A stretch of DNA of 64,000 nucleotides from Methanobacteriota archaeon (GCA_021372315.1 JAJFUT010000109.1:3759-67758); one strand, 5' to 3'. Counted from the stretch's first letter, positions 5,937 to 53,418 are shown. The notes: generated by a model from the sequence alone, not told the origin. A program made the numbers and translations.

Positions 5937-5946
5937 GCGCTATCCC

Positions 5947-7410: not shown

Positions 7411-7429
7411 CACTAGGGAAGGACGGCCT

Positions 7430-19056: not shown

Positions 19057-19109
19057 GCGTCCGCTAATTGTGCTTCAGTGATAATATAACGATTCGTCCG
19101 CCGGCAGCA

Positions 19110-20525: not shown

Positions 20526-20621
20526 TCCCCCGAAGCCATTTCCTGGATTCAGGCTGGAAATGGTAAAACAATGCCTGATGATCTGAACGTTCCAACGCCT
20601 TTGTATTATTTATGGCGGGGC

Positions 20622-21119: not shown

Positions 21120-21203
21120 TGATTTTCCCCGTTTAGATATTGCATTACATGGTATGTAAAGTATTGATATCGATAAAGGGAATGATGAAAGAGGTTTGGC
21201 GGA

Positions 21204-22781: not shown

Positions 22782-22873
22782 GTCCCCCTATTATAAGGGA
22801 ATCGAAGTGACCAGCGTGAGTGATTTGTCACAATCGAAGATGGCCTGAAAACATTATATCCGTTCTTGATGTT

Positions 22874-23764
22874 ATGGCCAACATGGATTGGATGCCCATC
22901 GCCCGTCTCGCGATCGCCGTCGCGGTGCTGATCTACGGGTCATACACCGACTGGAAGACGAGGACGGCCTCAGATACCTGTTGGATCGTCATGGGGATCG
23001 CCGGCCTGGCGTTCCTCGCTGTGGACATCCTCGACAGAGGGGAGGACCTCACCTATCTGCTGATGCTCATCCCTATCGGCTGGCTGTTCTTCGATCTGCT
23101 CATAGACAGGAAAGGGCTGTTCGAACCGGGCACCAACTACCTGCCGCTCGGCCTCTATGTGGTCAGCTTTGCCATTCTCGGGTATATGGTGTACTCGTTC
23201 AACGGGGAAGCGTACCTATGGGCCCTGATATCCATACCGATCATGTTCCTGCTCTACTACATCCTCTACATATTCGATATCATAAAGGGGGGCGCCGATG
23301 CGAAGGCATTGATCGCCCTATCTCTTCTGATGCCGGTCTATCCGATCATCGGCTCGTTGCCCATCATCGCCCTTCCCAGCGACGTGGCGCAGTACGTGAT
23401 GCCGTTCTCGCTTCTCTCGTTGTTCTACGGGGCGCTGCTGACCATCGTCGTTCCGTTGTACTATCTCGTCGTCAACACCATCCGCGGAGACCGGAAGTTC
23501 CCGTCGATGCTCTTCGGTGTGCGCATGGACATGGCCGAGGCAAAAAGGAAGTTCGTCTGGCCGATGGAGTACGTCGACGGAGAGGAGATCAAGATATCCT
23601 CCTTCCCCAAAGGCCCAGAATCGATCGAGGAGCATTTCGCCACCCTCGAGGCCAAAGGACTGACGAGGATATGGGTGACACCGAAGATCCCGATGCTCAT
23701 CCCGATAACGGCTGGTGTGATCATAGCCGCGACCGTCGGGAACGCGCTCTTCCTGCTCTTCTGA
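22874..23764 (+). CDS. A24-family aspartic peptidase (archaeal prepilin/preflagellin peptidase-like) with a C-terminal soluble domain
   Basis: ATG at 22874 (MANMDWMPIARL...). The two catalytic Asp contexts are YTDWKTR and GGADAKAL. Polytopic membrane protein. Confidence 0.75.
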   Translation: MANMDWMPIARLAIAVAVLIYGSYTDWKTRTASDTCWIVMGIAGLAFLAVDILDRGEDLTYLLMLIPIGWLFFDLLIDRKGLFEPGTNYLPLGLYVVSFAILGYMVYSFNGEAYLWALISIPIMFLLYYILYIFDIIKGGADAKALIALSLLMPVYPIIGSLPIIALPSDVAQYVMPFSLLSLFYGALLTIVVPLYYLVVNTIRGDRKFPSMLFGVRMDMAEAKRKFVWPMEYVDGEEIKISSFPKGPESIEEHFATLEAKGLTRIWVTPKIPMLIPITAGVIIAATVGNALFLLF

Positions 23765-24398
23765 GCGGATATGGACAATGGTCCGACAGCGGGCATTCGT
23801 CGCATCCAGGGACCGTACGGCAGACGCTCTTGCAGTGTTGGACGCACAAGGCGTAGAACTCCCTGTACGCGCCAGGCGACCGGGGGAGCTTCGATTCCAC
23901 GAAACGTTGGACATCGTCATAGGCCAACGAACTGAACGTCCCGGTCCTGGACAGTACTCTGGACACGTATGAGGCGGCCACGAACTTCGGTCTGCCGCCC
24001 GCGAACAGCAAGATCGAATCGGCGGTCTCCTTTCCGATGCCCCCGAGGGAAAGCAGCTCCCACCTGGCGGCGTCCGTGTCCTGCATCAGCATGGCCATCG
24101 CGTCCCCTTCGTAGCGGTCCAGGATGTGTCGGGACATGCCGCGCAGGTGCTTCGCCTTCTGATTGTAGAACCCCGTCGGCCTGATGACCCTCTCCAGGTC
24201 CCCGTCGGCGTTGGCCAACGCGCCTACGTCCATCAATCCCCTTTCTCGCATTTCGTCGAGCACCTTCGACACGGTCTCCCAGACGGTCTGCTGCGTCAGC
24301 ACCGCCCCGACCATCACTTCGAAGGGAGACCCCGAAGGCCACCAATCCTCGACATCATATTCTTCTGACAACCGGAGCCGCAGCTCGCCGATCTTCAA
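23721..24398 (-). CDS. endonuclease III-related HhH-GPD protein with an Fe-S cluster loop
   Basis: 225 aa. VGAVLTQQTVWE, LLSLGGIGKETADSILLFA (HhH), C-terminal CKSVCRTVPGCDECPLSDHC. Its 3' end overlaps the convergent peptidase gene by 44 nt. Confidence 0.8.
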   Translation of the reverse strand: MKIGELRLRLSEEYDVEDWWPSGSPFEVMVGAVLTQQTVWETVSKVLDEMRERGLMDVGALANADGDLERVIRPTGFYNQKAKHLRGMSRHILDRYEGDAMAMLMQDTDAARWELLSLGGIGKETADSILLFAGGRPKFVAASYVSRVLSRTGTFSSLAYDDVQRFVESKLPRSPGAYREFYALCVQHCKSVCRTVPGCDECPLSDHCPYPLRRAGRARSRRSRL

Positions 24399-39555: not shown

Positions 39556-40149
39556 ATGCTGACTTATAATAGGCCGGATTTACACAATTGGGGTATTGCC
39601 ATCTCGAAATACAGTATCCAGAACGTGGTTGCATCCGCAAATTTGGGCACAGAGCTCGATCTAAACGTCCTCGCACTCAATCTGAATGGAGCCGAGTATG
39701 AGCCTCAGGCATTTCCTGGCCTCATCTTCAGGCTGAAGGAGCCTAAGACCGCGACCTTGCTTTTCCATAGTGGGAAGCTCGTCTGCACCGGCGCCAAGAC
39801 ATTGGAGCAGGTGAAGCTCGCGATCGAAACGGTCGTGAAGAGCGTCAAGGAGGCCGGGGTAACGATCACTGGCACACCTACCTACGAGGTCCAGAACATC
39901 GTCGCTTCGTCCGATCTCGGACAGCCGATCGATCTAACGTCCGTCGTCATATCATTGGGCCTGGAGAGGGTAGAGTACGAGCCGGAAGTGTTCCCTGGTC
40001 TCGTTTACCGCATGAGCGACCCGAAGGTCGTGTTCCTGCTCTTCGGTTCCGGAAGGCTCGTGTGCACCGGCGCACGCAAACCTCACGATGTCGAGGTGTC
40101 CGTCGACAAGCTGACGGAAGAACTGCGCGCGGCCGACCTGTTGCACTGA
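39556..40149 (+). CDS. tbp: TATA-box binding protein, paralogue 1
   Basis: 197 aa with two TBP repeats. IQNVVASANLG...EYEPQAFPGLIFRL...LLFHSGKLVCTGAK and VQNIVASSDLG...EYEPEVFPGLVYRM...LLFGSGRLVCTGAR. Confidence 0.9.
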   Translation: MLTYNRPDLHNWGIAISKYSIQNVVASANLGTELDLNVLALNLNGAEYEPQAFPGLIFRLKEPKTATLLFHSGKLVCTGAKTLEQVKLAIETVVKSVKEAGVTITGTPTYEVQNIVASSDLGQPIDLTSVVISLGLERVEYEPEVFPGLVYRMSDPKVVFLLFGSGRLVCTGARKPHDVEVSVDKLTEELRAADLLH

Positions 40150-40297
40150 ACGTGCACTGGCCGGTATCTCTCCGAAGACGCAGCCGCGATCCTTTCCGAA
40201 TTGGACGACCCGATCCGACCCGGGGCTTGATGATGAAGGTCACAACGTTCCTTGATCGGGCGACCGTCCCTTATTAAATCATTCGACGTCGGCTTCA

Positions 40298-40305
40298 TTT
40301 AAATA
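40298..40305 (+). promoter_or_regulatory. TATA box (TTTAAATA) upstream of TBP paralogue 2
   Basis: Matches the archaeal TTTAWATA consensus. 20 nt separate it from ATG 40326, consistent with a leaderless or near-leaderless transcript. The ATACCA and ATTTTAC blocks downstream of it recur upstream of TBP paralogue 3. Confidence 0.4.
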
Positions 40306-40380
40306 TACCATAAATTTTACTCTCCATGGGGCATCGTTATATCGAACTACAATATCCAGAACATCGTAACGTCCGCGAAC

Positions 40381-40887
40381 TTGGGCACAGAGCTCGATCT
40401 CAACTCCCTCGCCCTCAATCTGAAGGATGCTGAGTATGAGCCTCAGTCGTTCCCTGGCCTGATCCTTCGTTCGAAGGAATCCAAGACGACGGCGCTATTG
40501 TTCAGAAGCGGGAAGATCGTTTGCACCGGCGCCAAGAACCTCGAGCAGGTCAAGCGCTCGGTCGAATCCGTCGTGAAGAGCGTCAGGGAGGCAGGCATCC
40601 CCATCGCCGGAGTCCCAACATACGAGGTCCAGAACATAGTTGCCTCGTCGGACCTCGGGCAGCTCATCGATCTAACTTCGATCGTCCTGTCCCTCGGACT
40701 CGACAAGGTGGAGTACGAGCCTGAGGTTTTCCCAGGTCTCGTGTATCGCATGAAGGAACCGAAGGTCGTGTTCCTGCTCTTCGGGTCAGGGAGACTGGTC
40801 TGCGTCGGGGCTCGGGTGCCCGAGGACGTCGGGACGGCCATCGACAAACTGACGGAAGAGCTGCGCATGGCCGATCTGTTGCACTGA
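40381..40887 (+). CDS. tbp: TATA-box binding protein, paralogue 2 (canonical start displaced; homology extends upstream to 40327)
   Basis: The ORF-track ORF starts at TTG 40381. The same frame is open and TBP-homologous from 40327 (WGIVISNYNIQNIVTSAN). The only ATG (40326-40328) is one nt out of frame and sits next to a GGGG run. Confidence 0.7.
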   Translation: MGTELDLNSLALNLKDAEYEPQSFPGLILRSKESKTTALLFRSGKIVCTGAKNLEQVKRSVESVVKSVREAGIPIAGVPTYEVQNIVASSDLGQLIDLTSIVLSLGLDKVEYEPEVFPGLVYRMKEPKVVFLLFGSGRLVCVGARVPEDVGTAIDKLTEELRMADLLH

Positions 40888-41058
40888 GAGCCACATTTCT
40901 AAGAACAAAAAGGAATCCGGTTCGATCCAGGTATCGATCTGGAACGATCGCTCGTTTTCAGGAGTCGCACCTGATGTATTGGTCGTCCCGAGATCCTTTT
41001 CATCCTTCGGCCTGCGATCTACGAGCAACCTCTATAGCAAATACCAAGCTCATTTTAC

Positions 41059-41625
41059 ATGGTCTGTGGGATCCTCATATCAAAATATTGCGTTCAGAAC
41101 ATGGTAGCATCTGCAAGTCTGGGCAGAGAGCTTGACCTCACCACTCTTGCGCTCAATATGAACGGGGCCCAGTATGAACCGCAGACCTTCCCCGGATTGG
41201 TCTTCCGGTTAAAGGAGCCTAAGACAGCGACTCTGCTCTTCCACAGTGGAAAGCTCGTTTGTACTGGTGCCAAGACCCTTGCACAGGTCGAACTCGCCAT
41301 TGAAACAGTTGTCAAGAGCGTCACGGAAGCTGGCATTCCGATCACTGGCTCCCCCACCTTCCAGGTTCAGAACATCGTCGCTTCGGCGGATCTTGGGTGC
41401 CATTTAGATCTTACGTCGTTGGTCATATCATTGGGTCTGGACAAGGTGGAGTATGAACCAGAGGTGTTCCCAGGTCTGGTCTATCGTATGATCGAACCTA
41501 AGGTGGTATTCCTCATTTTCGGGTCTGGTAGATTGGTATGCACAGGGGCACGGACATCACAGGATGTCGGGATCGCAGTGGATAAGCTGACGGAAGAACT
41601 CCGCGCGGCCGATCTTCTGCAATGA
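41059..41625 (+). CDS. tbp: TATA-box binding protein, paralogue 3
   Basis: 188 aa, MVCGILISKYCVQNMVASASLG.... Both TBP repeats are intact. Confidence 0.9.
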   Translation: MVCGILISKYCVQNMVASASLGRELDLTTLALNMNGAQYEPQTFPGLVFRLKEPKTATLLFHSGKLVCTGAKTLAQVELAIETVVKSVTEAGIPITGSPTFQVQNIVASADLGCHLDLTSLVISLGLDKVEYEPEVFPGLVYRMIEPKVVFLIFGSGRLVCTGARTSQDVGIAVDKLTEELRAADLLQ

Positions 41626-41667: not shown

Positions 41668-41743
41668 TGGTGGGTCTGTCCGGATTTGAACCGGAGTCAC
41701 CAGCACCCCAAGCTGGAAGGATACCAAGCTACCCCACAGACCC
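41668..41743 (-). tRNA. tRNA-Pro (anticodon GGG), CCA encoded
   Basis: Hand-folded. Acceptor GGGTCTG/CAGACCC. D arm with G18G19. Anticodon stem CCAGC/GCTGG with loop TTGGGGT (GGG, G37). T arm TCCGG-TTCAAAT-CCGGA. Discriminator A + CCA. Confidence 0.9.
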
Positions 41744-41967: not shown

Positions 41968-42372
41968 TCACCTGTAGGACTTCTGCCTCTTCTTCCTTGC
42001 ACCACGGCCCAGGGGCTTCTTCGGCAGCTTTCTCCTGATGTCGGAGATCAACAGTGACCTGTCGAACTGCTTGACAGCCTTTTCCAGTTCCTCATCGCCG
42101 TAATACTCTACGATCGACTTAGCGATTGCGGTCCTGGTCGCCTCGGCCTGACCCATGACACCGCCGCCAGCCACGCTGACGTCGATATCGACCTTCTTCG
42201 CCCTCTCACCTAGAAGGGCAAGGGGCTCCATGATCTTGAGCCTGGCGAGCTCTGGCTGCCATGCCTCGATCGGGACCGAGTTGATGCGTAGCTTGCCGGT
42301 TCCTTCCTGACAGACTGCGCGAGCTACTGCCGTCTTCCTCTTTCCGCTCGTGTTGATGACCTTTGCCGCCAT
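41968..42372 (-). CDS. rps9: 30S ribosomal protein uS9
   Basis: 134 aa. TSGKRKTAVARA...GGGVMGQAEA...RKKRQKSYR. Confidence 0.95.
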   Translation of the reverse strand: MAAKVINTSGKRKTAVARAVCQEGTGKLRINSVPIEAWQPELARLKIMEPLALLGERAKKVDIDVSVAGGGVMGQAEATRTAIAKSIVEYYGDEELEKAVKQFDRSLLISDIRRKLPKKPLGRGARKKRQKSYR

Positions 42373-42376
42373 GTAC

Positions 42377-42802
42377 TCACCTCACCTTGGAGCCTAGGAA
42401 CTCAGCGACCTCGCCGACGAAGATGTACTTCTCGGTGTTGAGCTTCGTTGCGCTAGCGATCTTCTCCATCTTCGCGTCGGCGAACTCCACAGGGACCCCG
42501 ACATAGATCTTGAGCTTCTTGTAAGCCGCCTTGCCTATTGGGTGGTCCCAAGGAAGCATTCCCCTGACCATGCGCTTTAGAATCAGATCAGCGCGCCTCG
42601 GGTAGAACGGCCCAGAGTGGGCGTAGCCCCTGTCGCGCTTTGACTTGTATTTCTCATATATTGCATAACGGTCACCTGTGATGACCGCCTTCTCGGCGTT
42701 GACGATGACTATCGTCTCGCCCTTGAGCAGCTGGTGAGCCACAGTGGTGGCGAGCCTTCCAGCGATGTGCTTCTCCGCATCGATTACGATCATCTGATTC
42801 AC
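42377..42802 (-). CDS. rpl13: 50S ribosomal protein uL13
   Basis: 141 aa. VIDAEKHIAGRLAT...AVITG...RMVRGMLP. Confidence 0.95.
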   Translation of the reverse strand: MNQMIVIDAEKHIAGRLATTVAHQLLKGETIVIVNAEKAVITGDRYAIYEKYKSKRDRGYAHSGPFYPRRADLILKRMVRGMLPWDHPIGKAAYKKLKIYVGVPVEFADAKMEKIASATKLNTEKYIFVGEVAEFLGSKVR

Positions 42803-43158
42803 CTCATGATCTTGATGCCGGTCCCGTTGGGCTTCATCTTCACAAGTTCCATTATGCTGATGCCCTTACCGCCGGCCTCCGCGATCTTCTTCTTCGCGGA
42901 TTCGGAGAAATCATACGCAGCTACGGTTACCTTCTTGTTGATGCTGCCAGCTCCCAACACCTTACCGGCTACGACGACGAAGTCGCCATCGGTGGTGTAT
43001 CGCTCTAACTTGCTCAGGTTGACTTCCGCCCTATTCGCATTGGACTTCTCAAGTCTCTGAGCAATGTCTCGCCAGATGTCCGCCCCGTTCTCCCTCGAGG
43101 ACTTCTTGAGGTCCGCGATGAGGAGCACCAGGTTCGGATCAGTCTTCTGTAGTCTCAT
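42799..43158 (-). CDS. rpl18e: 50S ribosomal protein eL18 (L18e)
   Basis: ATG at 43158 (MRLQKTDPNLVLLIADLKK...) is preceded by GGGAGAG and gives 119 aa, the usual L18e length. An upstream GTG at 43191 is the alternative start. Confidence 0.88.
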   Translation of the reverse strand: MRLQKTDPNLVLLIADLKKSSRENGADIWRDIAQRLEKSNANRAEVNLSKLERYTTDGDFVVVAGKVLGAGSINKKVTVAAYDFSESAKKKIAEAGGKGISIMELVKMKPNGTGIKIMR

Positions 43159-43263
43159 TTGTCTGACTCTCCCGACATTGGTAAGCGGCACTAATAGAGA
43201 GGGGGTTAAAATACCTTTCCAAGCGCCGCTAGAGTCAATGACACCAAGCCAGCAACCCCGTTC

Positions 43264-46200
43264 TCATTTATCAGCTTGTCGCTTGATCGCGACCTTGACA
43301 GCCTCTTCTATCCGGTCCAACGTCCTCTCCCTGTCAAGCGCCCAATCCCGGGACCACACACGGATGGTGTTCCAGCCGAGGTTCTTGAGAACGCCCTCGC
43401 GGACGATCTCCCTGTCCCGTGCGTTCCGACCGGCGGTGTACGACGTTCCGTCGCAGAGCACTCCGATGAGATACCTGCCCTTCTGGGCCGGGTCCATGAC
43501 CGCCACGTCGACCCTTATCGAGGACGAACCCACGTTCCTGGCGACCTGGTGCCCCCTCGCGGTGAGCGCCGACGCTATGGAACCTTCGAGCATAGACTTC
43601 GACAGAGCGATCTCCTGCGGCGTCATCGCCACCCTCCCGCCCTTGGACTCGGCATGGTCGAGGTAGTCCCTCAGAAGGACGACCCCTAGAGGTCCGTTCT
43701 GGCCTACCTGTATATCCCTGGACATGATCGAAGAGACGACCTTCACGGACCTTCTGGCCCTGGTGATCGCCACGTTCAGCCTCCGCGCGCCTCCTTCCTG
43801 GTTCAGCGGCCCGAAGTTGAGCGTCATCGTCCCGTTCCCGTCCTTGCCATACCCGACGGAGAAGATCATGACGTCCCTCTCATCGCCCTGCACGTTCTCC
43901 AGGTTCTTCACGAAGAACGGCTCCGAGCCTTCGTCGTCGAAGAGGTTCGCGAGCTCGGGCCGGTCCCGGCTCATGGCCTTCACCTTGTACTCAAGAACGT
44001 CCAGGACCGCGTCCTGTTGCGCCACGCTGAACGCCACGACGCCCAACGACATCTCGGGATAGGCAAGGTATTGATCGATCACGGTGTCAGCGACGATCGC
44101 CGCCTCGATCCTGTTATCTCTCCTTCCGCCCCTGTCGTACACTCCGTCCTTGACATGGATGAGCTCTATCCCCTCGCCCGGTCTCGACGGTTCGGCCGAA
44201 GGCGTCGTGATGAGCTTGCCGCCGTAGAGGTGGCGGTTGGAGAATGAGATGAGCGATTCCTGCCTCGACCTGTAATGCCATAAGAGCATCCTCTGCTTAA
44301 GCCCTATCGTCCCGCACTCGTCCAGAATGCTCTCGAGGTCCTCTAGCTCGTCCTCGTCGTCGGTCTCCGAGATGCGGTCGAAGAAACGCGTCGGGGGCAG
44401 CTGCCTGTTATCGCCCACGACCACGAGCTGTTTTCCTCTCAGTATGCAGCAGATCGCGTCCTCCGGGACGATCTGGGACGCCTCGTCGAAGATGACGACG
44501 TCGAACTGCACCTTCTCTGGCGGAGGGAGGAACTGGCTTACGGATATGGGGCTCATCATGAAGCAGGGCTTGGCGACGCCGAGCACCGTCGGGCTCCTAG
44601 CTATCATCTCCCTGACCGCAGGCCTCTTCTTGCTGCCCTTGAGCCCGATGAGATAGCCCTCCTCCTGCCTCCACCTCTCGTCGGCGTTCATCCTGTTGTT
44701 CTTGATCTTGTCGAAAAGGAGCTTCCTGAGCCTGGCCTTGGATATTTCCCTGGAGTCCTTGTCGAGCTGCTTGTACTTGGATATCCTGTCCATGTGCTCG
44801 GACGAGTTGAACCGGCCGAGCGCCTGCTCCTTCGCGTGCAGCTCCTGCAGCCACAGCTGGAAGAACCTCTTCCTGAACATCGGCTTCAGGTCCGATAGCG
44901 CGGGCTGACGCTTCAGCACCTCCTCGTAGAGCGAACCGAGGCCTTCGGCCCTGAGCATCGCCTCGGTCTCCCTGAACTCGACCCACTCAGCGAGCCTGGC
45001 CTTGGCATCGACGTGGCCCTTGGCGAACGTCCTCAATCTGATCATCTCGGACGACCCGTCGAACGCCCTGAGGTTGTCAACAAAGAGGTTCCGTGCCGAC
45101 CCGAGCGCGAGGTCCAGGTCCTTCATCGCCCTGAGCGCCGTCGGTCCGTTACCGACGACGTCCTCCCTGAGCTCAGTTCCCTCGGCGACTACCTTCACCC
45201 ATGAGCCATCGTATCCGGGCATGTCCATGAACGATTTCGTCCAGCGCAGGGCAGATATGACCGGTCCCACGTCCTTTCCCATGTCGCCGTTATATCGTCC
45301 GAACCATTCAACGCCGTTCTTCTCGACATCTGCCAGCAATGTTTTGGCGCGCTGGTATTTTCTTAGGGCGAGCACGTCCCTGCGCGCGTCCTTGAACCCG
45401 ACCTTGCCGGTCGTGGACAGCATGTTGATCGCCTTCATGTCGATCCTGTAGCTAGTTCTGAAGATCCTGAGAAAGCTGGTATATTGCTTCTCGAACCTGT
45501 CCGCATAGGCGGTGCCGTCGAAGTCGAGGAACTCCTTCTTGTATCTCGTCAGGATGTATGCCTCGTTCGTGTTCGATTCGTCCGTGGCCGTCAGGAGCTT
45601 CATCGCTATGTCTAGGAGCCTCTCGGCCTCCCCCTTGGCGAACCAGTTCCTTGGCGGGAGCGGCGACCCTCCTGCGACGGAGAGCAGCGCCGAGAACTTA
45701 CGCATGGAATCGAGGCTCTTCGGGACCTCCATTCCCGCCTTCGGGCAGAACGCCGAGGATATCGCCAGAAGCTTCTCGATCTCCTTGAACACATCCTCCA
45801 GCCTGACGATGAGCTCCGCCTGTTCGGCCGGTCCGAGGTTCTTCAGGTCGCAGTCCCTCCATGGGTGGATCTCCCTCTCGACGAGAACGGACCTCGATGA
45901 GATGAGCCTCTGTATCGCATGCTCGGCGCTGTCCATCCTCTCCCTCGTGAAAGTCAGCGTGCCAGGGAGGTCGAACACGATCTGAGGATAATCATGCAGC
46001 GAGGCCAGCTCGCCATAGGCATGATGGGCGCTCATCTCCATAGGGCCCTGGGGGGAATGGAGCATGGCGACGTAGGCGTTGAGCTCCTCCCTGACGGTCC
46101 GCAGATGATTGAGCTTGAACTCGTCCTGCCCCTCGGTCCTGTGATCGACCATCTCGAGCGGACGAAGCATGCTCTCCAGAACGTCCTGCTTCGTCGGGTT

Positions 46201-47316
46201 GCTGGAGTGCATCTCGAGGCAGAATTCGCCCAGGCCGCAGCTGTCGAGCCTTCTCTTCACGACCTCCAGGGCGGCCATCTTCTCCGCGACGAACAGGACG
46301 GACTTGCCCTTAGCTAAGGACTCCGCGATGATGTTCGCGATCGTCTGGCTCTTGCCAGTGCCCGGAGGCCCGATGAGCACGAGGTTCTCCCCGCGCTTGA
46401 CGGCCTCGACAGCCTCCTGCTGGCTCGAGTCCGCCTCCAATATCTGATAGGTAGTGATGGGATCGAGCTCCCCCCCGGCAGGAGCGGTCCCTTCCGGCGG
46501 GACCCGCGAGAGATCGCCGGCGAGCGCCCTGAGGAGAGGGTGCTGCCTGATGGCGTCGGTGTTGCTTCTCAGGTCCTTATAGATGACGACCTTGGAGAAC
46601 ATGAACAGTCCGAGCAGAGGCTTCCCGATCTGAACGACCCAGCCGTTCCTCTTCATCAAGATGGCGGCAAGCGAGTTCAGGTAATCCAGGATGCTGAACC
46701 CCTCCAGGTCATCGGGCAGGGGCGGCAGGTCGGTGTTCATCTCCTTCCTGACCTTGAGCGCGAGCGCAGGGTTGAGGACGATCTCCTCCCCTATCACCTC
46801 AATAGTGTAGGACGATATCATCCCTTTCCTCGAGAGCTTGACCGGGGCTAACAGCAGCGGGGCCATGTGGACCTCGTCCTTCTCGTCCTTCCAGTTCAGC
46901 GTTCCGAACGTGACGAAGAGGGCGTCGACGCCCCTTTCCCTCCTGATGAGATTGGACTTTGAACGGAGGTTCCTGAGCACCTTCTCGGTGTTGGGGTTGA
47001 GCGTCGACGGCACCTCTCTCCCGTTCAGCACCGTAACGTTGTTGGAGAGGTCGCATTCCCTTCCGCCTGAAGGGTCCTCCCTGAACTCGTCCCTGAACTT
47101 CTCGCAATGGAGGGAAAGTGTCTTCCGATCGAGAACGAGACCGTTGAAGATGTCCTTCATTTCGGAACCGTTGATGATTATCGTCGCGGACTTCGTCATC
47201 CTGTAGTTCAGGAGCTTGTTGCTCATGCTGAGGTCGATCAGCTTCGACCCCCAGTCCGCGATCTTCTCGTCCAAGGTCATCTTCGTCTGCGTCACTTTAT
47301 TCCCCCTGCTGGTCAT
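43264..47316 (-). CDS. DUF4011-type N-terminal domain + Upf1-like SF1 helicase + C-terminal Vsr/DUF559-like (REase-fold) domain
   Basis: 1350 aa. N-terminus LIDLSMSNKLLNYR and GVDALFVTFGTLNW...APLLLAPVKL. Walker A GPPGTGKSQT, Walker B VIFDEASQI, GDNRQLPPT, WHYRSRQESLISFSN, GDERDVMIFSVGYG, RRLNVAITRARR. Tail IRVDVAVMD...YLIGVLCDGTSY...ARDREIVREGVLKNLGWNTIRVWSRDW. Confidence 0.85.
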   Translation of the reverse strand: MTSRGNKVTQTKMTLDEKIADWGSKLIDLSMSNKLLNYRMTKSATIIINGSEMKDIFNGLVLDRKTLSLHCEKFRDEFREDPSGGRECDLSNNVTVLNGREVPSTLNPNTEKVLRNLRSKSNLIRRERGVDALFVTFGTLNWKDEKDEVHMAPLLLAPVKLSRKGMISSYTIEVIGEEIVLNPALALKVRKEMNTDLPPLPDDLEGFSILDYLNSLAAILMKRNGWVVQIGKPLLGLFMFSKVVIYKDLRSNTDAIRQHPLLRALAGDLSRVPPEGTAPAGGELDPITTYQILEADSSQQEAVEAVKRGENLVLIGPPGTGKSQTIANIIAESLAKGKSVLFVAEKMAALEVVKRRLDSCGLGEFCLEMHSSNPTKQDVLESMLRPLEMVDHRTEGQDEFKLNHLRTVREELNAYVAMLHSPQGPMEMSAHHAYGELASLHDYPQIVFDLPGTLTFTRERMDSAEHAIQRLISSRSVLVEREIHPWRDCDLKNLGPAEQAELIVRLEDVFKEIEKLLAISSAFCPKAGMEVPKSLDSMRKFSALLSVAGGSPLPPRNWFAKGEAERLLDIAMKLLTATDESNTNEAYILTRYKKEFLDFDGTAYADRFEKQYTSFLRIFRTSYRIDMKAINMLSTTGKVGFKDARRDVLALRKYQRAKTLLADVEKNGVEWFGRYNGDMGKDVGPVISALRWTKSFMDMPGYDGSWVKVVAEGTELREDVVGNGPTALRAMKDLDLALGSARNLFVDNLRAFDGSSEMIRLRTFAKGHVDAKARLAEWVEFRETEAMLRAEGLGSLYEEVLKRQPALSDLKPMFRKRFFQLWLQELHAKEQALGRFNSSEHMDRISKYKQLDKDSREISKARLRKLLFDKIKNNRMNADERWRQEEGYLIGLKGSKKRPAVREMIARSPTVLGVAKPCFMMSPISVSQFLPPPEKVQFDVVIFDEASQIVPEDAICCILRGKQLVVVGDNRQLPPTRFFDRISETDDEDELEDLESILDECGTIGLKQRMLLWHYRSRQESLISFSNRHLYGGKLITTPSAEPSRPGEGIELIHVKDGVYDRGGRRDNRIEAAIVADTVIDQYLAYPEMSLGVVAFSVAQQDAVLDVLEYKVKAMSRDRPELANLFDDEGSEPFFVKNLENVQGDERDVMIFSVGYGKDGNGTMTLNFGPLNQEGGARRLNVAITRARRSVKVVSSIMSRDIQVGQNGPLGVVLLRDYLDHAESKGGRVAMTPQEIALSKSMLEGSIASALTARGHQVARNVGSSSIRVDVAVMDPAQKGRYLIGVLCDGTSYTAGRNARDREIVREGVLKNLGWNTIRVWSRDWALDRERTLDRIEEAVKVAIKRQADK

Positions 47317-47548
47317 TCATCGCATGGGTAATAATGGATTTGCTCCAAGAACCCTTTAAAGGAATCATTGGGAATGGCAGGCCGTCCGATCGGAACGGCG
47401 CCGCAGGGGTTAGTTCGTTGACCCAGATTCGACGTCGGATGCGCCATGCCGTCTTTTTATAATAAAAAAAATATTAATAACCTATTTAAACATGGACGTA
47501 TTAAATAATACGTTTGTCATAGTGTAAAGCTCACCCCGAGGTTGTTTA

Positions 47549-48640
47549 ATGATTCGTTTTGGTCCAGCTGGTATTCCTCTCTCTTGTAAGGGGAGGACGT
47601 TAAAAGACGGAATCGAGGACGTCCACAATCTAGGCCTTAACGCCATGGAGGTCCAGATGGTCAGGGTCAATGTAGTCGAAAGGGTGCCTGACGAAGAGGA
47701 GGTGGGCCTGACCCCGATGGACGTGGAGAGCGACCTCATCATAGAGATGCTCCGCCAGGTCAAGAAGAAGAATACCATCATCACGAACGTCAACGATAAG
47801 ATCAAGGCGGACGACACCCTCATCACGCTGGCCTCCGGTCTCGTTCAGAACTTCAAGGAGCTGAAGGGATTGGGGACGATGGGGAAGGAGCTCGACGTGG
47901 AGCTCACCATGCACACTCCGTATTATATGGACCTCACCTCCGGCAACGAGCTCACTAAGAAGAGCATCGACAGCATCAGGTGGGCCGGCCTGCTCACGAA
48001 CCACATGGAAGGGTCCATGGTCGTCTCTCACATCGGTCTCTATGGCGACCCCCAGAAGATGAGCAAGAAGCAGGCTTACAAGGTCATCAAGGAGAACATC
48101 GAAGGCGTGATGGCGTTCTGGAGCAAGAACAAGATCAAGGCGAAGCTCGGCTTCGAGACGTCCGGAAGGCAGGAGGTGTTCGGCAGCCTGGAGGAGCTGA
48201 TACAGCTCAGCGACGAGATAGACGGCATCGTGCCGGTGCTCAACTTCGCTCACCTCCATGCCAGGCAGAACGGGACCCTCAGGGAGCCGCAGGACTTCGG
48301 CGAGCTCTTCGACAGGCTTAAAACCTATGTCGGCGGGCACTATTACACTCATTTCGCAGGCGTCGAGCATGAGGGAGGGAACGAGAAGAGGGTCACTCCC
48401 ATCAAGAAGGGAGACCTTCGCTTCGAGCCCTTGGCCGAGTACCTGGCCGACGAGAATCCCGAATGCACGATAATCTCCAGCTCGCCGCTGCTCGAGCACG
48501 ACGCGATGTACATGAAGGTCATCTACGAGCGCGTCATGACGAAGAAGGTCTGCAAGGACACGAAGGCGGGCAAGAAGGACAAGTCTAAGTCAAGGGACGA
48601 CGACGATGACTATTATGACGACGACAAGGACGTTGATTGA
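47549..48640 (+). CDS. endonuclease IV-like TIM-barrel (xylose-isomerase-like) protein with an internal insertion and a charged tail
   Basis: 363 aa. MIRFGPAGIP...LNAMEVQMV, ...LTMHTPYYMDL, VVSHIG, GFETSG, NFAHLHA, THFAGVEH. C-terminal KAGKKDKSKSRDDDDDYYDDDKDVD. Confidence 0.7.
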   Translation: MIRFGPAGIPLSCKGRTLKDGIEDVHNLGLNAMEVQMVRVNVVERVPDEEEVGLTPMDVESDLIIEMLRQVKKKNTIITNVNDKIKADDTLITLASGLVQNFKELKGLGTMGKELDVELTMHTPYYMDLTSGNELTKKSIDSIRWAGLLTNHMEGSMVVSHIGLYGDPQKMSKKQAYKVIKENIEGVMAFWSKNKIKAKLGFETSGRQEVFGSLEELIQLSDEIDGIVPVLNFAHLHARQNGTLREPQDFGELFDRLKTYVGGHYYTHFAGVEHEGGNEKRVTPIKKGDLRFEPLAEYLADENPECTIISSSPLLEHDAMYMKVIYERVMTKKVCKDTKAGKKDKSKSRDDDDDYYDDDKDVD

Positions 48641-48645
48641 GAGTG

Positions 48646-49182
48646 ATGGGTAGCTCGGCGTACATCCTCAGCGAGGTCGAGGCCGCGATCGAGAAGGTCG
48701 GCGACTCGAAGGTCGAAGAGATCGTCTCGGCGATCGTCTCGGCAAAGAAGATATTCATCTTCGGTGTCGGTCGTTCGGGGCTGGTCGGGCAATCCTTCGC
48801 CGTGCGCCTTGTCCAGATGGGGCTTGACGTCCATTTCGTCGGAGATATGACCACGCCGATAGTCGAAAAGGACGATCTTGTCATCATCATCTCGAACACT
48901 GGTGAGACCATGTCGGCCGTTCAGACGGCCAACATCGTCCGCCGCATAGGGGCGACGGTCCTGACGATCACATCATCAGTTCATTCAAAGCTTGCGATCG
49001 CTTCGACGATAGTCCTGGTCATCCCTCCGTTCAAGGACGAGAAGAGGAAACAGCTAGCACCGCTGGGAACTCTCTTCGAGGTCTCGACAGGGATAATATT
49101 GGACTCGCTGGTCCCGGTCATAATGCAGAAGCTGAACCTCACCGAGGCTTCCCTCAGAAAGAGGCACGCGATCTGGGTGTGA
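48646..49182 (+). CDS. hxlB: 6-phospho-3-hexuloisomerase (SIS domain)
   Basis: KIFIFGVGRSGLVGQSFAVRLVQMGLDVHFVGDMTTP, DLVIIISNTGET. ATG at 48646; an in-frame TTG at 48637 is the alternative start. Confidence 0.8.
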   Translation: MGSSAYILSEVEAAIEKVGDSKVEEIVSAIVSAKKIFIFGVGRSGLVGQSFAVRLVQMGLDVHFVGDMTTPIVEKDDLVIIISNTGETMSAVQTANIVRRIGATVLTITSSVHSKLAIASTIVLVIPPFKDEKRKQLAPLGTLFEVSTGIILDSLVPVIMQKLNLTEASLRKRHAIWV

Positions 49183-49195
49183 CTGTCAAATTAAA

Positions 49196-50007
49196 TCATC
49201 GGTCATCCAGCTCTTCAATGAACTTTTTGATCGTCACATAGCTCTCTGCTTGGTCCCTCTTTCTCTGTTCCTCATCATTTCCAGATAAGAACCTTCCAAC
49301 CCAAGAAGGGCCCTCGGCATCGATCGATCTGAATTTCTTCCTAATCTTTCACATGCCCAATTGCATGCTATGCTCATTTAGGAACGGTTTTACCTTCCGG
49401 CCTATTGCACCAGGATTCTCGAGACACTGCGAAACTACGGAGTAAATGTAATAATCATCTTTCTCCTTGTATCGTTCACTCAGCACTACTCCTTTCATTC
49501 CAATGCACCCCGTGATATCCAACACTTTTATTGTAGAGCTCGACACTCCATTACCTGGAAGAAACCATCGAAAATTCTTATCAAGATTATGTTGAAATGC
49601 AATATCGCATCCGTTTGCGGTCCTTGCAGGAGGTGTTCTTTGTATCACCCTATGTCTATGTTTCCCCGAATCAATTGACGGGCTTGTCAAAAATCTATAG
49701 AGATGGGATATACCACACCGTTTGATCTTGATACCACTTTCTTTTCGAAACTGAATGAGATCGTTTGTCCATCTTTCCCTCTACTCTCAGTATATCCTCG
49801 TTCCTGGACAAGATCGATAATTGTTGAATATTCATCGTCCCTCATCAGTTCTGGATTGACGGCTAGGTCAATATCGACGGATCCGACGTGGGTGATCCCT
49901 CCCCTGCCGAACTCCTCTATGAGGAAGAATGGTGCCCAACCCCCAACAAGCACCAGCGCTTCTCGATACGAACTCGGGGTCAATGACAATTCCAACAGGG
50001 CCGACAA
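49196..50007 (-). pseudogene. AbiEii/AbiGii-like nucleotidyltransferase toxin gene, broken by a frameshift and an in-frame stop
   Basis: ORF 49687..50007 carries LVLVGGWAPFF...HVGSVDIDLAV (NTase GG/GS...DxD) and ends ISIDF*. The +1 frame continues LTSPSIDSGKHRH...IKVLDITGCIGMKGVVLSERYKEKDDYYIY. The switch lies in an A5 run at 49689-49693. A TGA at 49346-49348 is followed by 49 more open in-frame codons, to 49199. Confidence 0.6.
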
Positions 50008-50060
50008 TGATGTCTCAGAAACACCAGTACCATAATCGGACGACGATCTTGGCTGCCCAA

Positions 50061-51101
50061 CTAAACTCCCAATATCTTCTCTCTGATGGCTTCAGCCTGC
50101 TCCCTTCCACGTTGAGGATAGTTGTTGAGGTCTAAGTAGAGCTGAATGTTGGACACTACTCTCACTCCATCTATCGATCGGGCGCTTCTCAGTATCCCAT
50201 CGTCCTTTGGTTCCATCAGATAGACATTGCCGCCAAATTCAACAGGCTCTAAACCCAGATTGTTTATTACAGCGGAAAAATCATTGCAGTACAAGTACAC
50301 ATCAACTGACCTCACAACTGGAAGGACCAACTGGGCAGCAGCTCCTAGGGTAAGAGCATAATCGTCCTCGATCTCCCTCAGCTTTGAAAATATTTGTTCA
50401 TAGCCTTTAAGAGGCGAATAATACCCGACGATCTTCTGATCATCATAGCTATATCTATCGGCCATCAGATCAAGTAAACCAGAAGGGTCTGAGATCCTTA
50501 TCGCGCCTCTCTTTTTATCAATGTACTTTTCAGCTTCGAGGCTATCCAGCACCTTATACACTTGAGCCAGGCTTACCGAGCAGTAGTTCGATAATTCCTG
50601 CATCGTCCATCTCTTCTCCGGATTCTCGAGCATGCTCCTGATGATCAAAGAACTCTTCAGAGAGAGCAGGTTCTTTTGTTTCCTCTCGATTTTATATTTG
50701 TTACTGCTACCCCACTGATTAATATATACATTATCATATTTTAAATAGATATTCCCTGACAGGTCAATGCACCCGATATTGGACCTTTCGCACAATCGTC
50801 TTCCTCGTTCGCTGATGAAAGGCGCAACCAGGACAGGATAATGGTCTGCCCTGGATCGATCGCCAATTCGACCCGCGAACTCAGCGATGGATCTAGGTTC
50901 CCCATTTGAGCGGAACTCGAGCAACAATTTCTTTTTCTGATTTCCGATCATGAAATTGGCGATTAGATAGGTCCTGCCATCCTTGCTCACATTATCTGGA
51001 TCTCTTTCCCATTTGATTATCCCTAAGTGGGACAGCAATGTTTCTACCTTTTTTTCATATTCCGTCTCTTTCATAATTTTCACTATATTACTAATATTCA
51101 C
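50061..51101 (-). CDS. AbiEi-like antitoxin/transcriptional regulator (central wHTH) with an extra N-terminal domain
   Basis: 346 aa. wHTH WTMQELSNYCSVSLAQVYKVLDSLEAEKYI. C-terminal part with VSNIQLYLDL, as in AbiEi-type proteins. It lies directly upstream of the NTase gene. The family assignment is from memory of the architecture, not a search. Confidence 0.5.
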   Translation of the reverse strand: MNISNIVKIMKETEYEKKVETLLSHLGIIKWERDPDNVSKDGRTYLIANFMIGNQKKKLLLEFRSNGEPRSIAEFAGRIGDRSRADHYPVLVAPFISERGRRLCERSNIGCIDLSGNIYLKYDNVYINQWGSSNKYKIERKQKNLLSLKSSLIIRSMLENPEKRWTMQELSNYCSVSLAQVYKVLDSLEAEKYIDKKRGAIRISDPSGLLDLMADRYSYDDQKIVGYYSPLKGYEQIFSKLREIEDDYALTLGAAAQLVLPVVRSVDVYLYCNDFSAVINNLGLEPVEFGGNVYLMEPKDDGILRSARSIDGVRVVSNIQLYLDLNNYPQRGREQAEAIREKILGV

Positions 51102-51167
51102 CGAGTGGTGAAAATAATATGGATGGTGAAAGTAAAAACTATTATCCCAACACTGTCTAGAAATAAT

Positions 51168-51812
51168 TCACTGTTCCGAGCGCTTCTTGCGCGCCATGAC
51201 GGTCTCCCCGTAATAGGGGTTCTGGTACTCGTCCCAATATATGGCGAAGGGCCTTTCTTCGACCGATCCTTCCTTCAATCTGAAGACGGCGATCTCGACG
51301 TTAACGGGGTCGATGACAAGGGCCGAATGGTATGGGCCGCTGAACATCTTCGTCTGAGTGTCAACATCGACCTGCGAAAGGAAGCAGCCATGCCCCGGGT
51401 GGGAATGGTACCATCCGACAATGACGTAGTTGAAGCAGGAGTCATCCATCGATTCGAAAAGCCTCTCGAATCCTTCACGATCGAACTTCACGCTGACAGA
51501 GGTGGCATCCAGGTCCGTCGTGGCCACGTCCCTTACCAGAGCGTAGGTCTTGCCGCCATCCTCATAGATGGAGCCGAGCAGAAAGCCCATGACCTCGACC
51601 ACATCGTCCTTCTTGCTAAGCGCATGATTGCGGATCCTCTCTTCGGCCGTCTTGGAGATGTAGAGCTCGAATGCGCCATCGCTCTCGGCGTAGGATCTCA
51701 TGGATTCTTCGGACAGCCACTTATGGGGCCTGCATCTTTCCTTTGGTGGTCTAGGCCTCTTCTCGACGGCGAGGTCCGTCGATGCAGTGATGATGGGCTT
51801 CCTCCTGATCAT
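51168..51812 (-). CDS. JAMM/MPN+ metalloprotease (Rpn11/JAB-like deubiquitylase candidate)
   Basis: An internal ATG at 51812 forms an ATGA overlap with the E2 stop. Glu in VVEVMGFLLG. JAMM motif HSHPGHGCFLSQVD (HxHx7SxxD). Confidence 0.85.
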   Translation of the reverse strand: MIRRKPIITASTDLAVEKRPRPPKERCRPHKWLSEESMRSYAESDGAFELYISKTAEERIRNHALSKKDDVVEVMGFLLGSIYEDGGKTYALVRDVATTDLDATSVSVKFDREGFERLFESMDDSCFNYVIVGWYHSHPGHGCFLSQVDVDTQTKMFSGPYHSALVIDPVNVEIAVFRLKEGSVEERPFAIYWDEYQNPYYGETVMARKKRSEQ

Positions 51813-52312
51813 CTTATCACCCTTGGCTGAACGGTCTTCGCCACAGGGGCCGCCTTCAGGCCCTCCTTGTTGAAATGTTCCGCGGCCATGGTGCAAGAAT
51901 CTGTGCCGAACGGACTGGAGCCGTTCGGAGATAGTAGGAGCGATTCGATACCTTTCAGGAAGCTGAGCAGCGAGGAGTTGAAGTTCCATTCGCTAAGAAG
52001 CCTCGTGCAGACGTGGCCTCCATCATCGGGCTGCATGATGTTGGGGTGGAAGATCGGCGTCTTCCAGATGACGAGAGGTTTTTCGAACGGATATTCTCGC
52101 CCGATGATCATCCTGAAGCTATGGGTGTATCGATAGGTCACCCTCCCGCCTTCGTATACCGGGCCAGGCAGATGATTGAACGTGATGTCGAGATCGAGCG
52201 GGAAGCTGTCCAGCCCTTCATCCGATATCTCGATGGTCGCCTTCGTGGCCAGCCGGCAGGCCGAGATCTCGTTCTTCAACCTTGACTTTAGGATCTCCTC
52301 CGGGAGCGTCAT
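51809..52312 (-). CDS. UBC-fold E2 ubiquitin-conjugating enzyme homologue
   Basis: 167 aa. YPFEKPLVIWKTPIFHPNIMQPDDGGHVCTRLLSEWNFNSSLLSFLKGIESLLLSPNGSSP. It has the HPN motif, a catalytic-position Cys, and the LLxxPNxxxP helix of eukaryotic E2s. Confidence 0.85.
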   Translation of the reverse strand: MTLPEEILKSRLKNEISACRLATKATIEISDEGLDSFPLDLDITFNHLPGPVYEGGRVTYRYTHSFRMIIGREYPFEKPLVIWKTPIFHPNIMQPDDGGHVCTRLLSEWNFNSSLLSFLKGIESLLLSPNGSSPFGTDSCTMAAEHFNKEGLKAAPVAKTVQPRVIR

Positions 52313-52545
52313 GCACCGCCCTCGGGGTCGGGGATGAGCTCAAGTTCATCATTATCGGATATCCCGGCCTCGGTCACGGTCTGCTGTCCTCTCAACAGCT
52401 TCTTCCCCTTCCTGATGACGTAAGCTCCCTCTTCCTTGTTCCAGAAAGAAGCCGCGCCTTCGATGATCTCCTGGACCGTGTTATCGGCCTCAAGTTCCAT
52501 GTCGACCGTTCCACCGGTCTCAGCGTTCCTGATCTTCAACTTCAT
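52309..52545 (-). CDS. ubiquitin-like beta-grasp protein ending -Gly-Gly-Ala
   Basis: 78 aa, MKLKIRNAETGGTVDMELEADNTVQEIIEG...ELELIPDPEGGA*. The length and hydrophobic pattern resemble ubiquitin. A diglycine lies one residue from the C-terminus. Confidence 0.8.
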   Translation of the reverse strand: MKLKIRNAETGGTVDMELEADNTVQEIIEGAASFWNKEEGAYVIRKGKKLLRGQQTVTEAGISDNDELELIPDPEGGA

Positions 52546-52617
52546 CGACCCACATCTGAGGGGAAAAAACAGCTGCCCATTCTTAATCGTTTTCGATTAG
52601 AATCATATTATTGATAA

Positions 52618-53418
52618 TCATGACCGGTCGGGGTGGTTAGGGCAGGACGGGTCGATGGCCAGTTCATATTCCTCGCTGGTGCCGAGCAGGCCGTTGTAGA
52701 ACATGACGTTCTTGATGCATCTTTCCTTCTGTCCGGACAGGACCTTCAACCCTTCCCTGACCTGAACGGCAGCGATGATGCTGGTGGTAGTGATCTCCGC
52801 GGCCAATTTCCTCTCATGGAACACAACATCCGCGCCCGTGCAGCTGTACCGTTTCTCCAGGACCTTGAAATGGCTGCGGTTCATCGAGCATTGGATGCAC
52901 GGCGTTGATGGAGGAAGGACGACATGGACCTTTCCAGAGAACCCGTCGGTGCCTCCGTCGATGAATGGGACGCCAGCGTAATAGGAATGGGAGTTCACAT
53001 GCAGCCTCGCCGATACGTTGTCCAGGCATCCGAAGACAAGGTCGTATTCCTTGAACGTCTTCCAGTCAAGCTCCTCGACCCTTCCCACATGCGATCCGAA
53101 CCTCGCTTCGGGGTTCAGCTCCGCAGCCCTCTTCGCGACCACCTCGGCCTTCATGGCCTTAACGTCAGCGTCCTCATCGCGAAAGAACACGCATCTGTTC
53201 AGGTTCGATCGGACCACGTGGTCCATGTCTATCAGGAGGATATCCCTGAAACCCGATAGCACAAGGTTCTTTACAAGCTCATTTCCGAGCGCCCCTGCCC
53301 CCACCACCACGCATCTGGACCTTTCTATCTTGTCGACGTCGAGCCAGCCGATCCTTCTGGACCTCTCTAGCCGGTCCTCTTCCAGATCCCCAGGTCTGAT
53401 GCTGTCCTTCTGGTCCAT
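52618..53418 (-). CDS. ThiF/MoeB/UBA-type E1-like adenylyltransferase
   Basis: 266 aa. VVVGAGALGNELVKNL, DMDHVVRSNLNRC, CLDNVSARL, PPSTPCIQC, candidate catalytic Cys in RYSCTGAD. Confidence 0.85.
   Translation of the reverse strand: MDQKDSIRPGDLEEDRLERSRRIGWLDVDKIERSRCVVVGAGALGNELVKNLVLSGFRDILLIDMDHVVRSNLNRCVFFRDEDADVKAMKAEVVAKRAAELNPEARFGSHVGRVEELDWKTFKEYDLVFGCLDNVSARLHVNSHSYYAGVPFIDGGTDGFSGKVHVVLPPSTPCIQCSMNRSHFKVLEKRYSCTGADVVFHERKLAAEITTTSIIAAVQVREGLKVLSGQKERCIKNVMFYNGLLGTSEEYELAIDPSCPNHPDRS

Follow-up and report, generated by a model that had tools for sequence, protein, structure and literature searches.

The 64,000-nucleotide stretch of an archaeal genome analysed here (Methanobacteriota archaeon, GCA_021372315.1 JAJFUT010000109.1:3759-67758; hereafter, the window) carries, upstream of the ribosomal protein genes L18e-L13-S9, a gene for a 1350-amino-acid (aa) protein that joins a DUF4011 domain, a split helicase of superfamily 1B (SF1B) and a Vsr/DUF559-like tail. 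We propose that this gene is a long-resident, vertically inherited chromosomal member of the DUF4011/Upf1-like helicase/Vsr-like family, whose product would still be an active translocase and whose tail is probably non-catalytic. Judging from sequence comparisons and predicted structures, we give this reading a probability of slightly more than one half (about 0.55). It is carried by the replacement of the glutamate of the nuclease motif, and of residues that change along with it, in a tail under purifying selection, and by the descent of the gene at a single chromosomal site.

A nuclease-fold tail without its motif glutamate

The tail matches the Pfam family MTES_1575 (88.8 bits against a cut-off of 38.2, residues 1245-1339). 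Its AlphaFold2 model (predicted local distance difference test, pLDDT, 86) has the order alpha-beta-beta-beta-alpha-beta, which, as modelled, is that of a PD-(D/E)xK or Vsr-like nuclease, with D1270 in strand 2 and residues 1287-1289 at the end of strand 3, the place of the (D/E)xK motif. The Foldseek neighbours of the tail are 3hrl (DUF559), 3r3p (I-Bth0305I) and Hjc. Additionally, a profile of the tail family gave weak matches in the PDB to RAP-domain proteins of a mitoribosome (E 0.012) and to 3hrl, and the tail of a relative weakly matched Pfam RAP (E 0.0023). The RAP branch of the restriction-endonuclease fold binds RNA.

The D...ExD acidic motif of this tail is incomplete, as D1270 and D1289 are kept and the middle Glu is Leu1287 (within GVLCDGTSYTA, at residue 1285). 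In a gap-free blastp alignment, Leu1287 stands opposite the Glu of the GIECDG motif of Hhe, which is E1727 in RefSeq numbering and E1731 if the start is the in-frame ATG four codons upstream. The E1731A mutation of Hhe abolished defence (bioRxiv 10.1101/2022.06.16.496414). The initial annotation, made from the sequence of the window, had considered both the Glu and the His of a "YHS" block to be substituted. The change of the Glu stood, and the His proved a weak marker and was rejected as a stand-alone sign of degeneracy, since Glu-containing archaeal orthologues also lack it. In the non-redundant representatives described below, the His does co-vary with the Glu (107/23 versus 4/18), a statistic that is inflated by shared ancestry.

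Among 120 close homologues (denoted here by P numbers, and the loci of relatives by L numbers), the motif reads G(I/V)E(C/F)DG, and Glu is replaced by Leu solely in the sub-clade of the window, P0001-P0007 (49-100% identity). In the translated loci, sub-clade A1 of the protein tree reads ILCDG, LLCDG or IMCDG throughout, and sub-clade A2 reads IECDG. The motif position is Glu in 241 of the 272 family tails examined. For a survey of the wider family, the best 150 representatives (50% non-redundant) of 7,871 clusters were taken, which yielded 152 tail domains, 130 of them with Glu at position 1287 and the remaining 22 with a hydrophobic residue there (L 13, M 4, I 3, V 2).

Seven further positions differ between tails with and without the Glu, and the window protein departs from the consensus at all of them: it has N at 1261 (Q in 88% of the Glu-containing tails), T at 1291 (A, 81%), T at 1294 (H, 82%), E at 1303 (D, 96%), I at 1304 (R, 83%), E at 1307 (Q, 68%) and R at 1323 (T, 64%). 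Invariant in both kinds of tail are D1270, D1289, G1290, D1301, R1302, W1315 and W1321, and R1300 is nearly so; the window tail keeps D1270, D1289, R1300-D1301-R1302, W1315 and W1321. Over the whole gene, the ratio of non-synonymous to synonymous substitution rates (dN/dS) lies within 0.08-0.15, and the tail by itself gives 0.03-0.11, pairs from the Glu-less sub-clade included (for instance, 0.03 for L008/L009, 0.05 for L007/L008 and 0.08 for the window and L002). Purifying selection acts on every domain. From these alignments, the canonical catalytic centre appears to have been dismantled as a unit, with the fold and a second conserved surface apparently under strong constraint, and the survey points to a discrete Glu-less subtype of the tail that recurs across the family.

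Architecture and family assignment

As the initial annotation had proposed, the three parts are found in a single gene. Pfam matches, all of them above the gathering score, were obtained for DUF4011, for the split helicase (AAA_11, AAA_19 and AAA_30 around residues 296-360 and 937-976, and AAA_12 at 1006-1196) and for MTES_1575, and every motif quoted in that annotation is present: LIDLSMSNKLLNYR at residue 26, GPPGTGKSQT at 316, DEASQI at 944, GDNRQLPPT at 968 and RRLNVAITRARR at 1178, in addition to WHYRSR at 1013 and QGDERD at 1143. The absence of DUF3320 was likewise upheld, as it has no Pfam match anywhere in the 1350-aa protein. The C-terminus lies 10 residues past the tail in this protein and in all its short-form relatives, the whole clade of which is without DUF3320, so that this is not the truncation of one gene.

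The identical protein on record (P0001) and more than 7,900 homologues at E<=1e-10 indicate that the reading frame is not a chance one. Its composition is native, as had been supposed from a short count, with a GC content of 0.599 and a GC content at third codon positions (GC3) of 0.84 (window GC 0.573; neighbour GC3 0.75-0.82). The window has archaeal content, namely three tandem TATA-binding-protein genes, L18e, L13, S9 and tRNA-Pro, and the closest relatives are Methanomassiliicoccales, the order to which the host belongs.

The best PADLOC match is PDC-S37 (PDLC05009; 1187 bits, E=0), over positions 5-1346 of a 1550-position profile (about 87%). PADLOC also matches Hhe (PDLC02194) with 504 bits, the best-matching stretch being residues 775-1336. 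With the NCBIfam equivalog models, the scores were 1154.2 bits for ProA (NF058533; cut-off 1500; profile positions 347-1711 of 1903) and 753.6 bits for Hhe (NF042953; cut-off 2000; C-terminal part only). As both scores fall under their cut-offs, we assign the protein, on its profile matches, to the wider PDC-S37/ProA/Hhe family and as an equivalog of neither ProA nor Hhe. The class name Hhe, tentatively given at first, had to be corrected: the closest profiles are PDC-S37 and ProA, and Hhe matches the C-terminal half alone.

Helicase core, insertion and DUF4011 region

The helicase motifs are nearly invariant in the family alignment, and the window protein has the complete Upf1-like SF1B set: Walker A, a DExx Walker B, and motifs III, V and VI with the arginine finger. 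The core matches IGHMBP2, Upf1/NAM7, Sen1, Dna2 and ZNFX1 in the PDB, and its dN/dS is 0.03-0.10 (residues 931-1200). Because all ATPase/helicase motifs are kept, and by analogy with IGHMBP2, Upf1, Sen1 and Dna2 in the same family, the protein should hydrolyse ATP and translocate 5'-to-3' on single-stranded nucleic acid.

Motifs I and II are about 620 residues apart. The insertion that separates them (residues 385-930), the structure prediction of which had been suggested in the initial annotation, is modelled with confidence as a fold of long helices only (pLDDT 90.8), and a Foldseek search of the PDB found no resembling solved structure (generic coiled-coil matches, template modelling (TM) scores <=0.14). 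It is the fastest-evolving region, with 30-68% identity to orthologues and a dN/dS of 0.11-0.19; since the PDC-S37 profile spans it, it is a feature of the family. When the PDB was searched with the family profile, the DUF4011 region had no match.

Locus, distribution and descent

Homologues at 70, 65, 58, 56, 49, 44 and 40% identity all immediately precede L18e-L13-S9(-RpoN) and point in the same direction. On the other side, a divergent AP-endonuclease-like gene of the AP_endonuc_2 type and a SIS gene are found wherever the contig reaches far enough, and these two genes, together with L18e, delimit the insertion site. In a scan with one genome per species, loci were collected by alignment of L18e and marker genes were mapped on them, which gave 54 loci. 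Synteny is kept in 43, where the family gene is present in 17 and the site is empty in 26 (~230-320 bp between the flanking genes, and 828 bp at one locus); the other 11 loci show no synteny with the AP-endonuclease-like gene.

In a neighbour-joining species tree built from five flanking markers, the single-copy short forms belong to one clade, every sampled member of which has the gene (the window, L001, L002, L004, L005, L006, L007-L011, L013, L016-L018, L044 and L053, with L062 as sister). A second occupied clade corresponds to Methanomassiliicoccus in the narrow sense, with forms of ~1350-1700 aa that usually occur as a tandem pair (L030, L031, L034, L043, L063), and the lineages between both clades have an empty site. 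Either a single old insertion followed by several losses or two separate gains at this site may account for the two occupied clades. In the neighbour-joining tree of full-length proteins, A1 and A2 each have a bootstrap support of 100, A1+A2 has 89, and the node that also takes in the L062 group has 97. The gene tree mirrors the species tree, which points to vertical descent inside the clade. Both the window and orthologues down to 40% identity have the 1350-codon frame intact; the broken frames at L010, L016, L043 and L053 may be errors of long-read assembly. Identity between sub-clades is 44% for the helicase versus ~75% for the adjacent gene.

The initial annotation had noted that this architecture recurs in surveys of defence islands, a framing that had to be abandoned. 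The gene is surrounded by ribosomal, tRNA-synthetase, sugar-isomerase-like and E1/E2/JAB genes in conserved order, the same position is kept across the whole clade and presence does not vary between the close relatives sampled. Apart from a foreign AbiEi-like insert that the window alone has, nothing nearby is defence-like. The opposite pattern, a housekeeping distribution at a fixed position, is seen inside the clade and not across the order, where 26 species have an empty site.

Two other loci of the family are worth recording. P0096, from another archaeon (1325 aa, 37% identity, Glu kept; L064 8001-11978), lies between the genes for serine hydroxymethyltransferase and a phosphoglucose-isomerase-like protein, with genes for replication factor C, enolase and riboflavin in its vicinity, which is again a housekeeping neighbourhood. 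In L001 (CP058896.1), a type I-E CRISPR-Cas operon (18177-24047; Cas3, Cse1, Cse2, Cas7, Cas5, Cas6e, Cas1, Cas2) lies ~2.6 kb downstream of the ribosomal operon; the window and the other relatives examined have no such operon there.

Tandem pairs and double tails

At L030, L031, L034, L043 and L063, tandem paralogues occupy the same intergenic site (about 200-9400 in each). The upstream paralogue has 1574-1699 aa where it is intact and lacks the Glu (GILLDG, GIITDG, GIIADG, GILTDG or GIMCDG); the downstream one has ~1350-1520 aa and keeps GIECDG, except for that of L043, which has GIVCDG. A fragment of IS605 OrfB lies beside the pair of L063. Descent of A1 from a Glu-less upstream paralogue was considered and rejected, as A1+A2 has a support of 89 and zero replicates group A1 with the upstream paralogues; the bootstrap tree therefore indicates that the loss of the Glu in A1 was independent of that in the upstream paralogues.

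Six proteins (P0121, P0122, P0123, P0127, P0144 and P0156) have two MTES_1575 tails in one chain, with Glu in both and a degenerate RDRDR motif in the second (e.g., REQDE, RKKDK, QKNDY). The single copy of L038 (5390-9890) shares 73% identity, over its length, with the Glu-less upstream member of the L034 pair, yet it has a GIECDG tail of the downstream type, and from its sequence it looks like a fusion of a tandem pair by recombination between the two genes. The paired copies and the two-tail proteins suggest that the tail may work as a dimer and that pairs of a catalytic and a non-catalytic tail may be a recurring solution. The Glu-less kind occurs alone at this locus in the sub-clade of the window. 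No second close paralogue from complete genomes is found among the 120 best matches, and this is weak evidence that the sub-clade may be without a Glu-containing partner.

Interpretation

In the scenario that we prefer, a copy of the gene would have become lodged, in an ancestor of one clade of Methanomassiliicoccales, with the AP-endonuclease-like gene on one side and the L18e promoter on the other, and would have been inherited vertically since its arrival. A C-terminal extension of ~200 aa would have been lost along the way, and the Glu of the ExD nuclease motif would have been lost in the sub-clade of the window. The SF1B core would still hydrolyse ATP and move 5'-to-3' on single-stranded nucleic acid. 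The tail would have retained its fold and an invariant face (D1270, D1289-G, RDR, W1315, W1321) and lost the polar positions that travel with the Glu; given this loss, it probably no longer cuts by the canonical mechanism and probably binds nucleic acid or dimerises instead.

Some considerations weigh against this scenario. No Glu-less tail (22 representatives) departs from D1270 or D1289, which could mean that a metal site survives, and Vsr itself is an active nuclease, probably with a hydrophobic residue in the matching place. The comparison with the Hhe mutant involves a protein that is 36% identical over its C-terminal part and a weak phenotype. Furthermore, the trees are neighbour-joining trees with few markers, and they do not distinguish ancestral presence followed by losses from two gains.

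The invariance of both aspartates in 22/22 Glu-less representative tails is also what would be expected of a working single-gene defence system like Hhe or ProA, in which a re-arranged Vsr-style site on D1270 and D1289 would cut foreign DNA. The best profile matches are PDC-S37, ProA and Hhe, the wider family is mobile and accessory (519 plasmid records, and hhe in 304/5426 E. coli) and selection on the tail is strong. However, the Glu is required in Hhe, and the changes at sites 1261, 1294, 1303 and 1304 along with it look like loss of the whole site, not a swap. The presence of the gene is fixed in the clade and not variable between strains, and the C-terminal extension is gone, the version of which in related proteins overlaps DUF3320/winged-helix domains proposed to recognise invader DNA (PMC3710099). 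We regard this explanation as unlikely. A role in host nucleic-acid housekeeping seems to us more doubtful still. The gene would then clear RNA-DNA hybrids or handle RNA near transcription and translation, with the tail as a RAP-like RNA-binding module, in agreement with its vertical inheritance, with the housekeeping neighbours here and of the distant P0096, with the action of the closest solved helicases (Upf1, Sen1, IGHMBP2) on RNA or RNA-DNA hybrids, with the matches of the tail profile to RAP-domain proteins of a mitoribosome and with the loss of both the nuclease Glu and the C-terminal extension. In P. aeruginosa, a DUF4011 gene is among the core genes (PMC10250203). By contrast, the function would be dispensable, as 26 species of the sister clades do well with an empty site, the gene evolves much faster than its neighbours (44% vs ~75% identity between sub-clades) and its adjacency to L18e is explained by the insertion site, since the L18e promoter is separate.

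The same losses of the Glu and of the extension, together with the broken frames at four loci, possibly assembly errors, could be taken as signs of a defence-gene remnant that is decaying into a pseudogene. The selection analysis contradicts this reading (dN/dS of 0.08-0.15 overall and 0.03-0.11 in the tail), and the intact 1350-codon frame here and in orthologues down to 40% identity and the retention of all helicase motifs also speak against it, which makes it highly improbable. A more speculative proposal, to which we give slightly less credit than to the housekeeping role, is that of a domesticated, nuclease-dead, RAP-like translocase in host RNA or hybrid metabolism, with Glu-less tails forming a regulatory or sensor class that would pair with catalytic paralogues. 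As for the function of the translocase with a non-catalytic tail that we prefer, the mobility of the family elsewhere, the fast divergence of the gene and its dispensability in 26 related species would favour a continued role in conflict; fixation in the clade, housekeeping neighbours, the loss of the presumed target-recognition region and RNA-oriented structural relatives would favour domestication. We lean slightly towards a surveillance role independent of the nuclease over one in host metabolism.

Features of the locus

Table 1. Features of the helicase gene and its surroundings, in positions of the window.
Feature	Position	Strand	Basis
Whole gene, 1350 aa (DUF4011, split SF1B helicase, Vsr-like tail)	43264..47316	-	Open reading frame listing, translation, Pfam, PADLOC
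N-terminal DUF4011 domain, aa 25-186	46759..47244	-	Pfam PF13195, 91.8 bits
RecA-like domain 1, first part, aa 291-384 (Walker A GPPGTGKSQT, aa 316-325)	46165..46446	-	Pfam, motif search
All-alpha insertion, ~546 aa, aa 385-930, between motifs I/Ia and II	44527..46164	-	AlphaFold2 model
Remaining helicase core, aa 931-1200	43717..44526	-	Pfam, motifs, PDB profile matches
Vsr/DUF559-like MTES_1575 tail, restriction-endonuclease fold, aa 1245-1340	43297..43584	-	Pfam PF18741, 88.8 bits
Leu1287 codon, slot of the catalytic-motif Glu of the family	43456..43458	-	Tail alignments, blastp against Hhe
Putative own promoter of the helicase gene	47331..47360	-	TATA-like tttaaa read by eye
L18e promoter (aaaggtatttta) and 5' leader (cttaccaatgtcgggagagtcaga), intact	43159..43220	-	Alignment of 58 loci
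Ribosomal operon L18e-L13-S9, downstream, co-directional	41968..43158	-	Pfam, orthologue alignment
Xylose-isomerase-like TIM barrel (AP_endonuc_2) and SIS-domain gene, divergent, upstream	47549..49182	+	Pfam, synteny in 43 species genomes
ThiF-type E1	52618..53418	-
Ubiquitin-like protein, 78 aa, ending ...PEGGA	52309..52545	-
UQ_con E2	51809..52312	-
JAB peptidase	about 51168..51806	-

In the putative promoter of the helicase gene, tttaaa at 47355-47360 was read by eye as a TATA-like element; it precedes the ATG by 39-44 nt, and the call leans on the usual spacing of archaeal promoters. At the other end of the gene, the L18e TATA box and leader come directly after the helicase stop codon and are followed by the L18e ATG, and this arrangement is the same in occupied and empty loci (58). 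The alignment of orthologues and leaders places the true start of L18e at ATG 43158, and not at GTG 43191. Thus aligned, the helicase gene appears to lie upstream of an autonomous L18e promoter. Co-transcription with L18e was considered as a functional link and rejected, as L18e has a promoter and leader of its own at occupied and empty sites alike.

The leader itself (CCAATGTCGGGAGAGTCAGA) hardly varies within the order (60 nt upstream, L001-L063) and can still be recognised in Thermoplasmata further removed, and the promoter and leader show stronger conservation than much of the coding sequence does. The element may be no more than a promoter with a Shine-Dalgarno region, or it may be a leader with a regulatory function; by eye, there is no evident conserved hairpin. 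Just past the helicase stop codon, GCTGGC (window 43240-43250) is common to the occupied loci of the window's sub-clade; in relatives with an empty site, the reverse complement of this hexamer, GCCAGC, stands equally far from L18e (~95 nt upstream; e.g., L012 ~9905). This flip may be due to chance or be a trace of the rearrangement behind the insertion.

Beyond the SIS gene, a foreign insert of ~2 kb (49183-51167) separates SIS from JAB. Its GC content is 0.43-0.47 and its GC3 0.40-0.50, versus ~0.57 and 0.75 in the neighbours, and as SIS and JAB abut in L001 and L002, it is specific to this genome. It contains the gene of a 346-aa helix-turn-helix/AbiEi_2-like protein (50061-51101, minus strand), for which no AbiEii-type toxin partner was seen, and two small reading frames (49349-49690 and 49687-50007, minus strand) with no family match. 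The four-gene cassette that follows (51168-53418, minus strand; E1, ubiquitin-like protein, E2 and JAB in Table 1) has a conserved position across the order. It was considered as a conserved defence island or Bil system and rejected, given weak PADLOC matches (BilC 22 bits, BilD 20 bits; the CBASS E1-E2, BilC and BilD models all score within 20-44 bits). On the other side of the ribosomal operon, the three tandem TATA-binding-protein genes (197, 168 and 188 aa; 39556-41625, plus strand), the third of which has a lower GC3 (0.58), adjoin a tRNA-Pro(GGG) at 41668-41743.

Comparison with known systems

Automated tools will label the gene as anti-phage, a label that can mislead for a vertically inherited, clade-fixed gene without the Glu that is needed in Hhe. 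The locus is a well-resolved case of a gene from a conflict system settling into a core chromosomal neighbourhood. Additionally, the Glu-less subtype and the tandem pairing provide a testable idea, that of catalytic and non-catalytic subunits or of a nuclease-independent mode, for which natural mutants are at hand. More than 7,800 clusters at 50% identity (7,871) carry the MTES_1575-type tail of the family, and a search of the PDB and the literature found no solved structure and no published mechanism for PDC-S37/ProA/Hhe; the literature search found no mention of PDC-S37 and no paper describing ProA.

The closest solved cores are those of the Upf1-like SF1B helicases (IGHMBP2, Upf1/NAM7, Sen1, Dna2, ZNFX1), which share the motor motifs. 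The likeness is confined to these RecA-like motifs, with no counterpart for DUF4011, the 546-aa insertion or the nuclease-fold tail. With regard to the tail, its model superposes on 3hrl (DUF559) and 3r3p (I-Bth0305I) with TM scores of 0.69-0.76 relative to the target, although its profile matches to the group of Vsr, DUF559, EDxHD homing endonuclease and RAP folds are weak (E 0.01 to 1).

Giant conflict proteins in which an SF1 helicase is fused to the Vsr-family MTES_1575 domain have been described, and the window protein has this fusion in common with them (Anantharaman et al. 2013, PMC3710099). By contrast, it has none of the HEPN, transglutaminase and C-terminal winged-helix domains that they carry, the last of which overlap DUF3320 and were proposed by the authors to recognise invading DNA (PMC3710099). 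Hhe, from E. coli and Klebsiella, has a DUF4011 N-terminus, as does the window protein, and the same kind of helicase C-terminal half and tail (36% identity over 567 aa). However, it is larger (1911 versus 1350 aa), the good match is confined to its C-terminal part, and it keeps GIECDG where the window protein has GVLCDG. While the window gene is clade-fixed, hhe is accessory and mobile, occurring in 5.6% of complete E. coli genomes (304/5426) and also on an IncF Klebsiella plasmid, adjoining insertion sequence elements; the wider PDC-S37/ProA/Hhe family, found in 519 plasmid records, is likewise mobile and accessory. The match to ProA is strong and colinear, but ~346 N-terminal and ~190 C-terminal positions of its profile are without counterpart.

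PDC-S37 is colinear with the window protein over DUF4011, the helicase, the long insertion and the tail. The differences are the final ~200 profile positions, absent from the window protein, and the motif Glu, which is Leu in it; P0022, from the same locus in Methanomassiliicoccus, covers the profile from its first to its last part, and the window protein reaches position 1346 of 1550. The PDC systems were candidates, and not tested systems, at the release of PADLOC-DB v2. PDC-S37 is listed as a candidate single-gene phage-defence protein; the gene described here is fixed in a clade at one chromosomal site outside any defence island. It is not a new kind of system; it is the short form of PDC-S37/ProA/Hhe, without DUF3320, without the motif Glu and clade-fixed.

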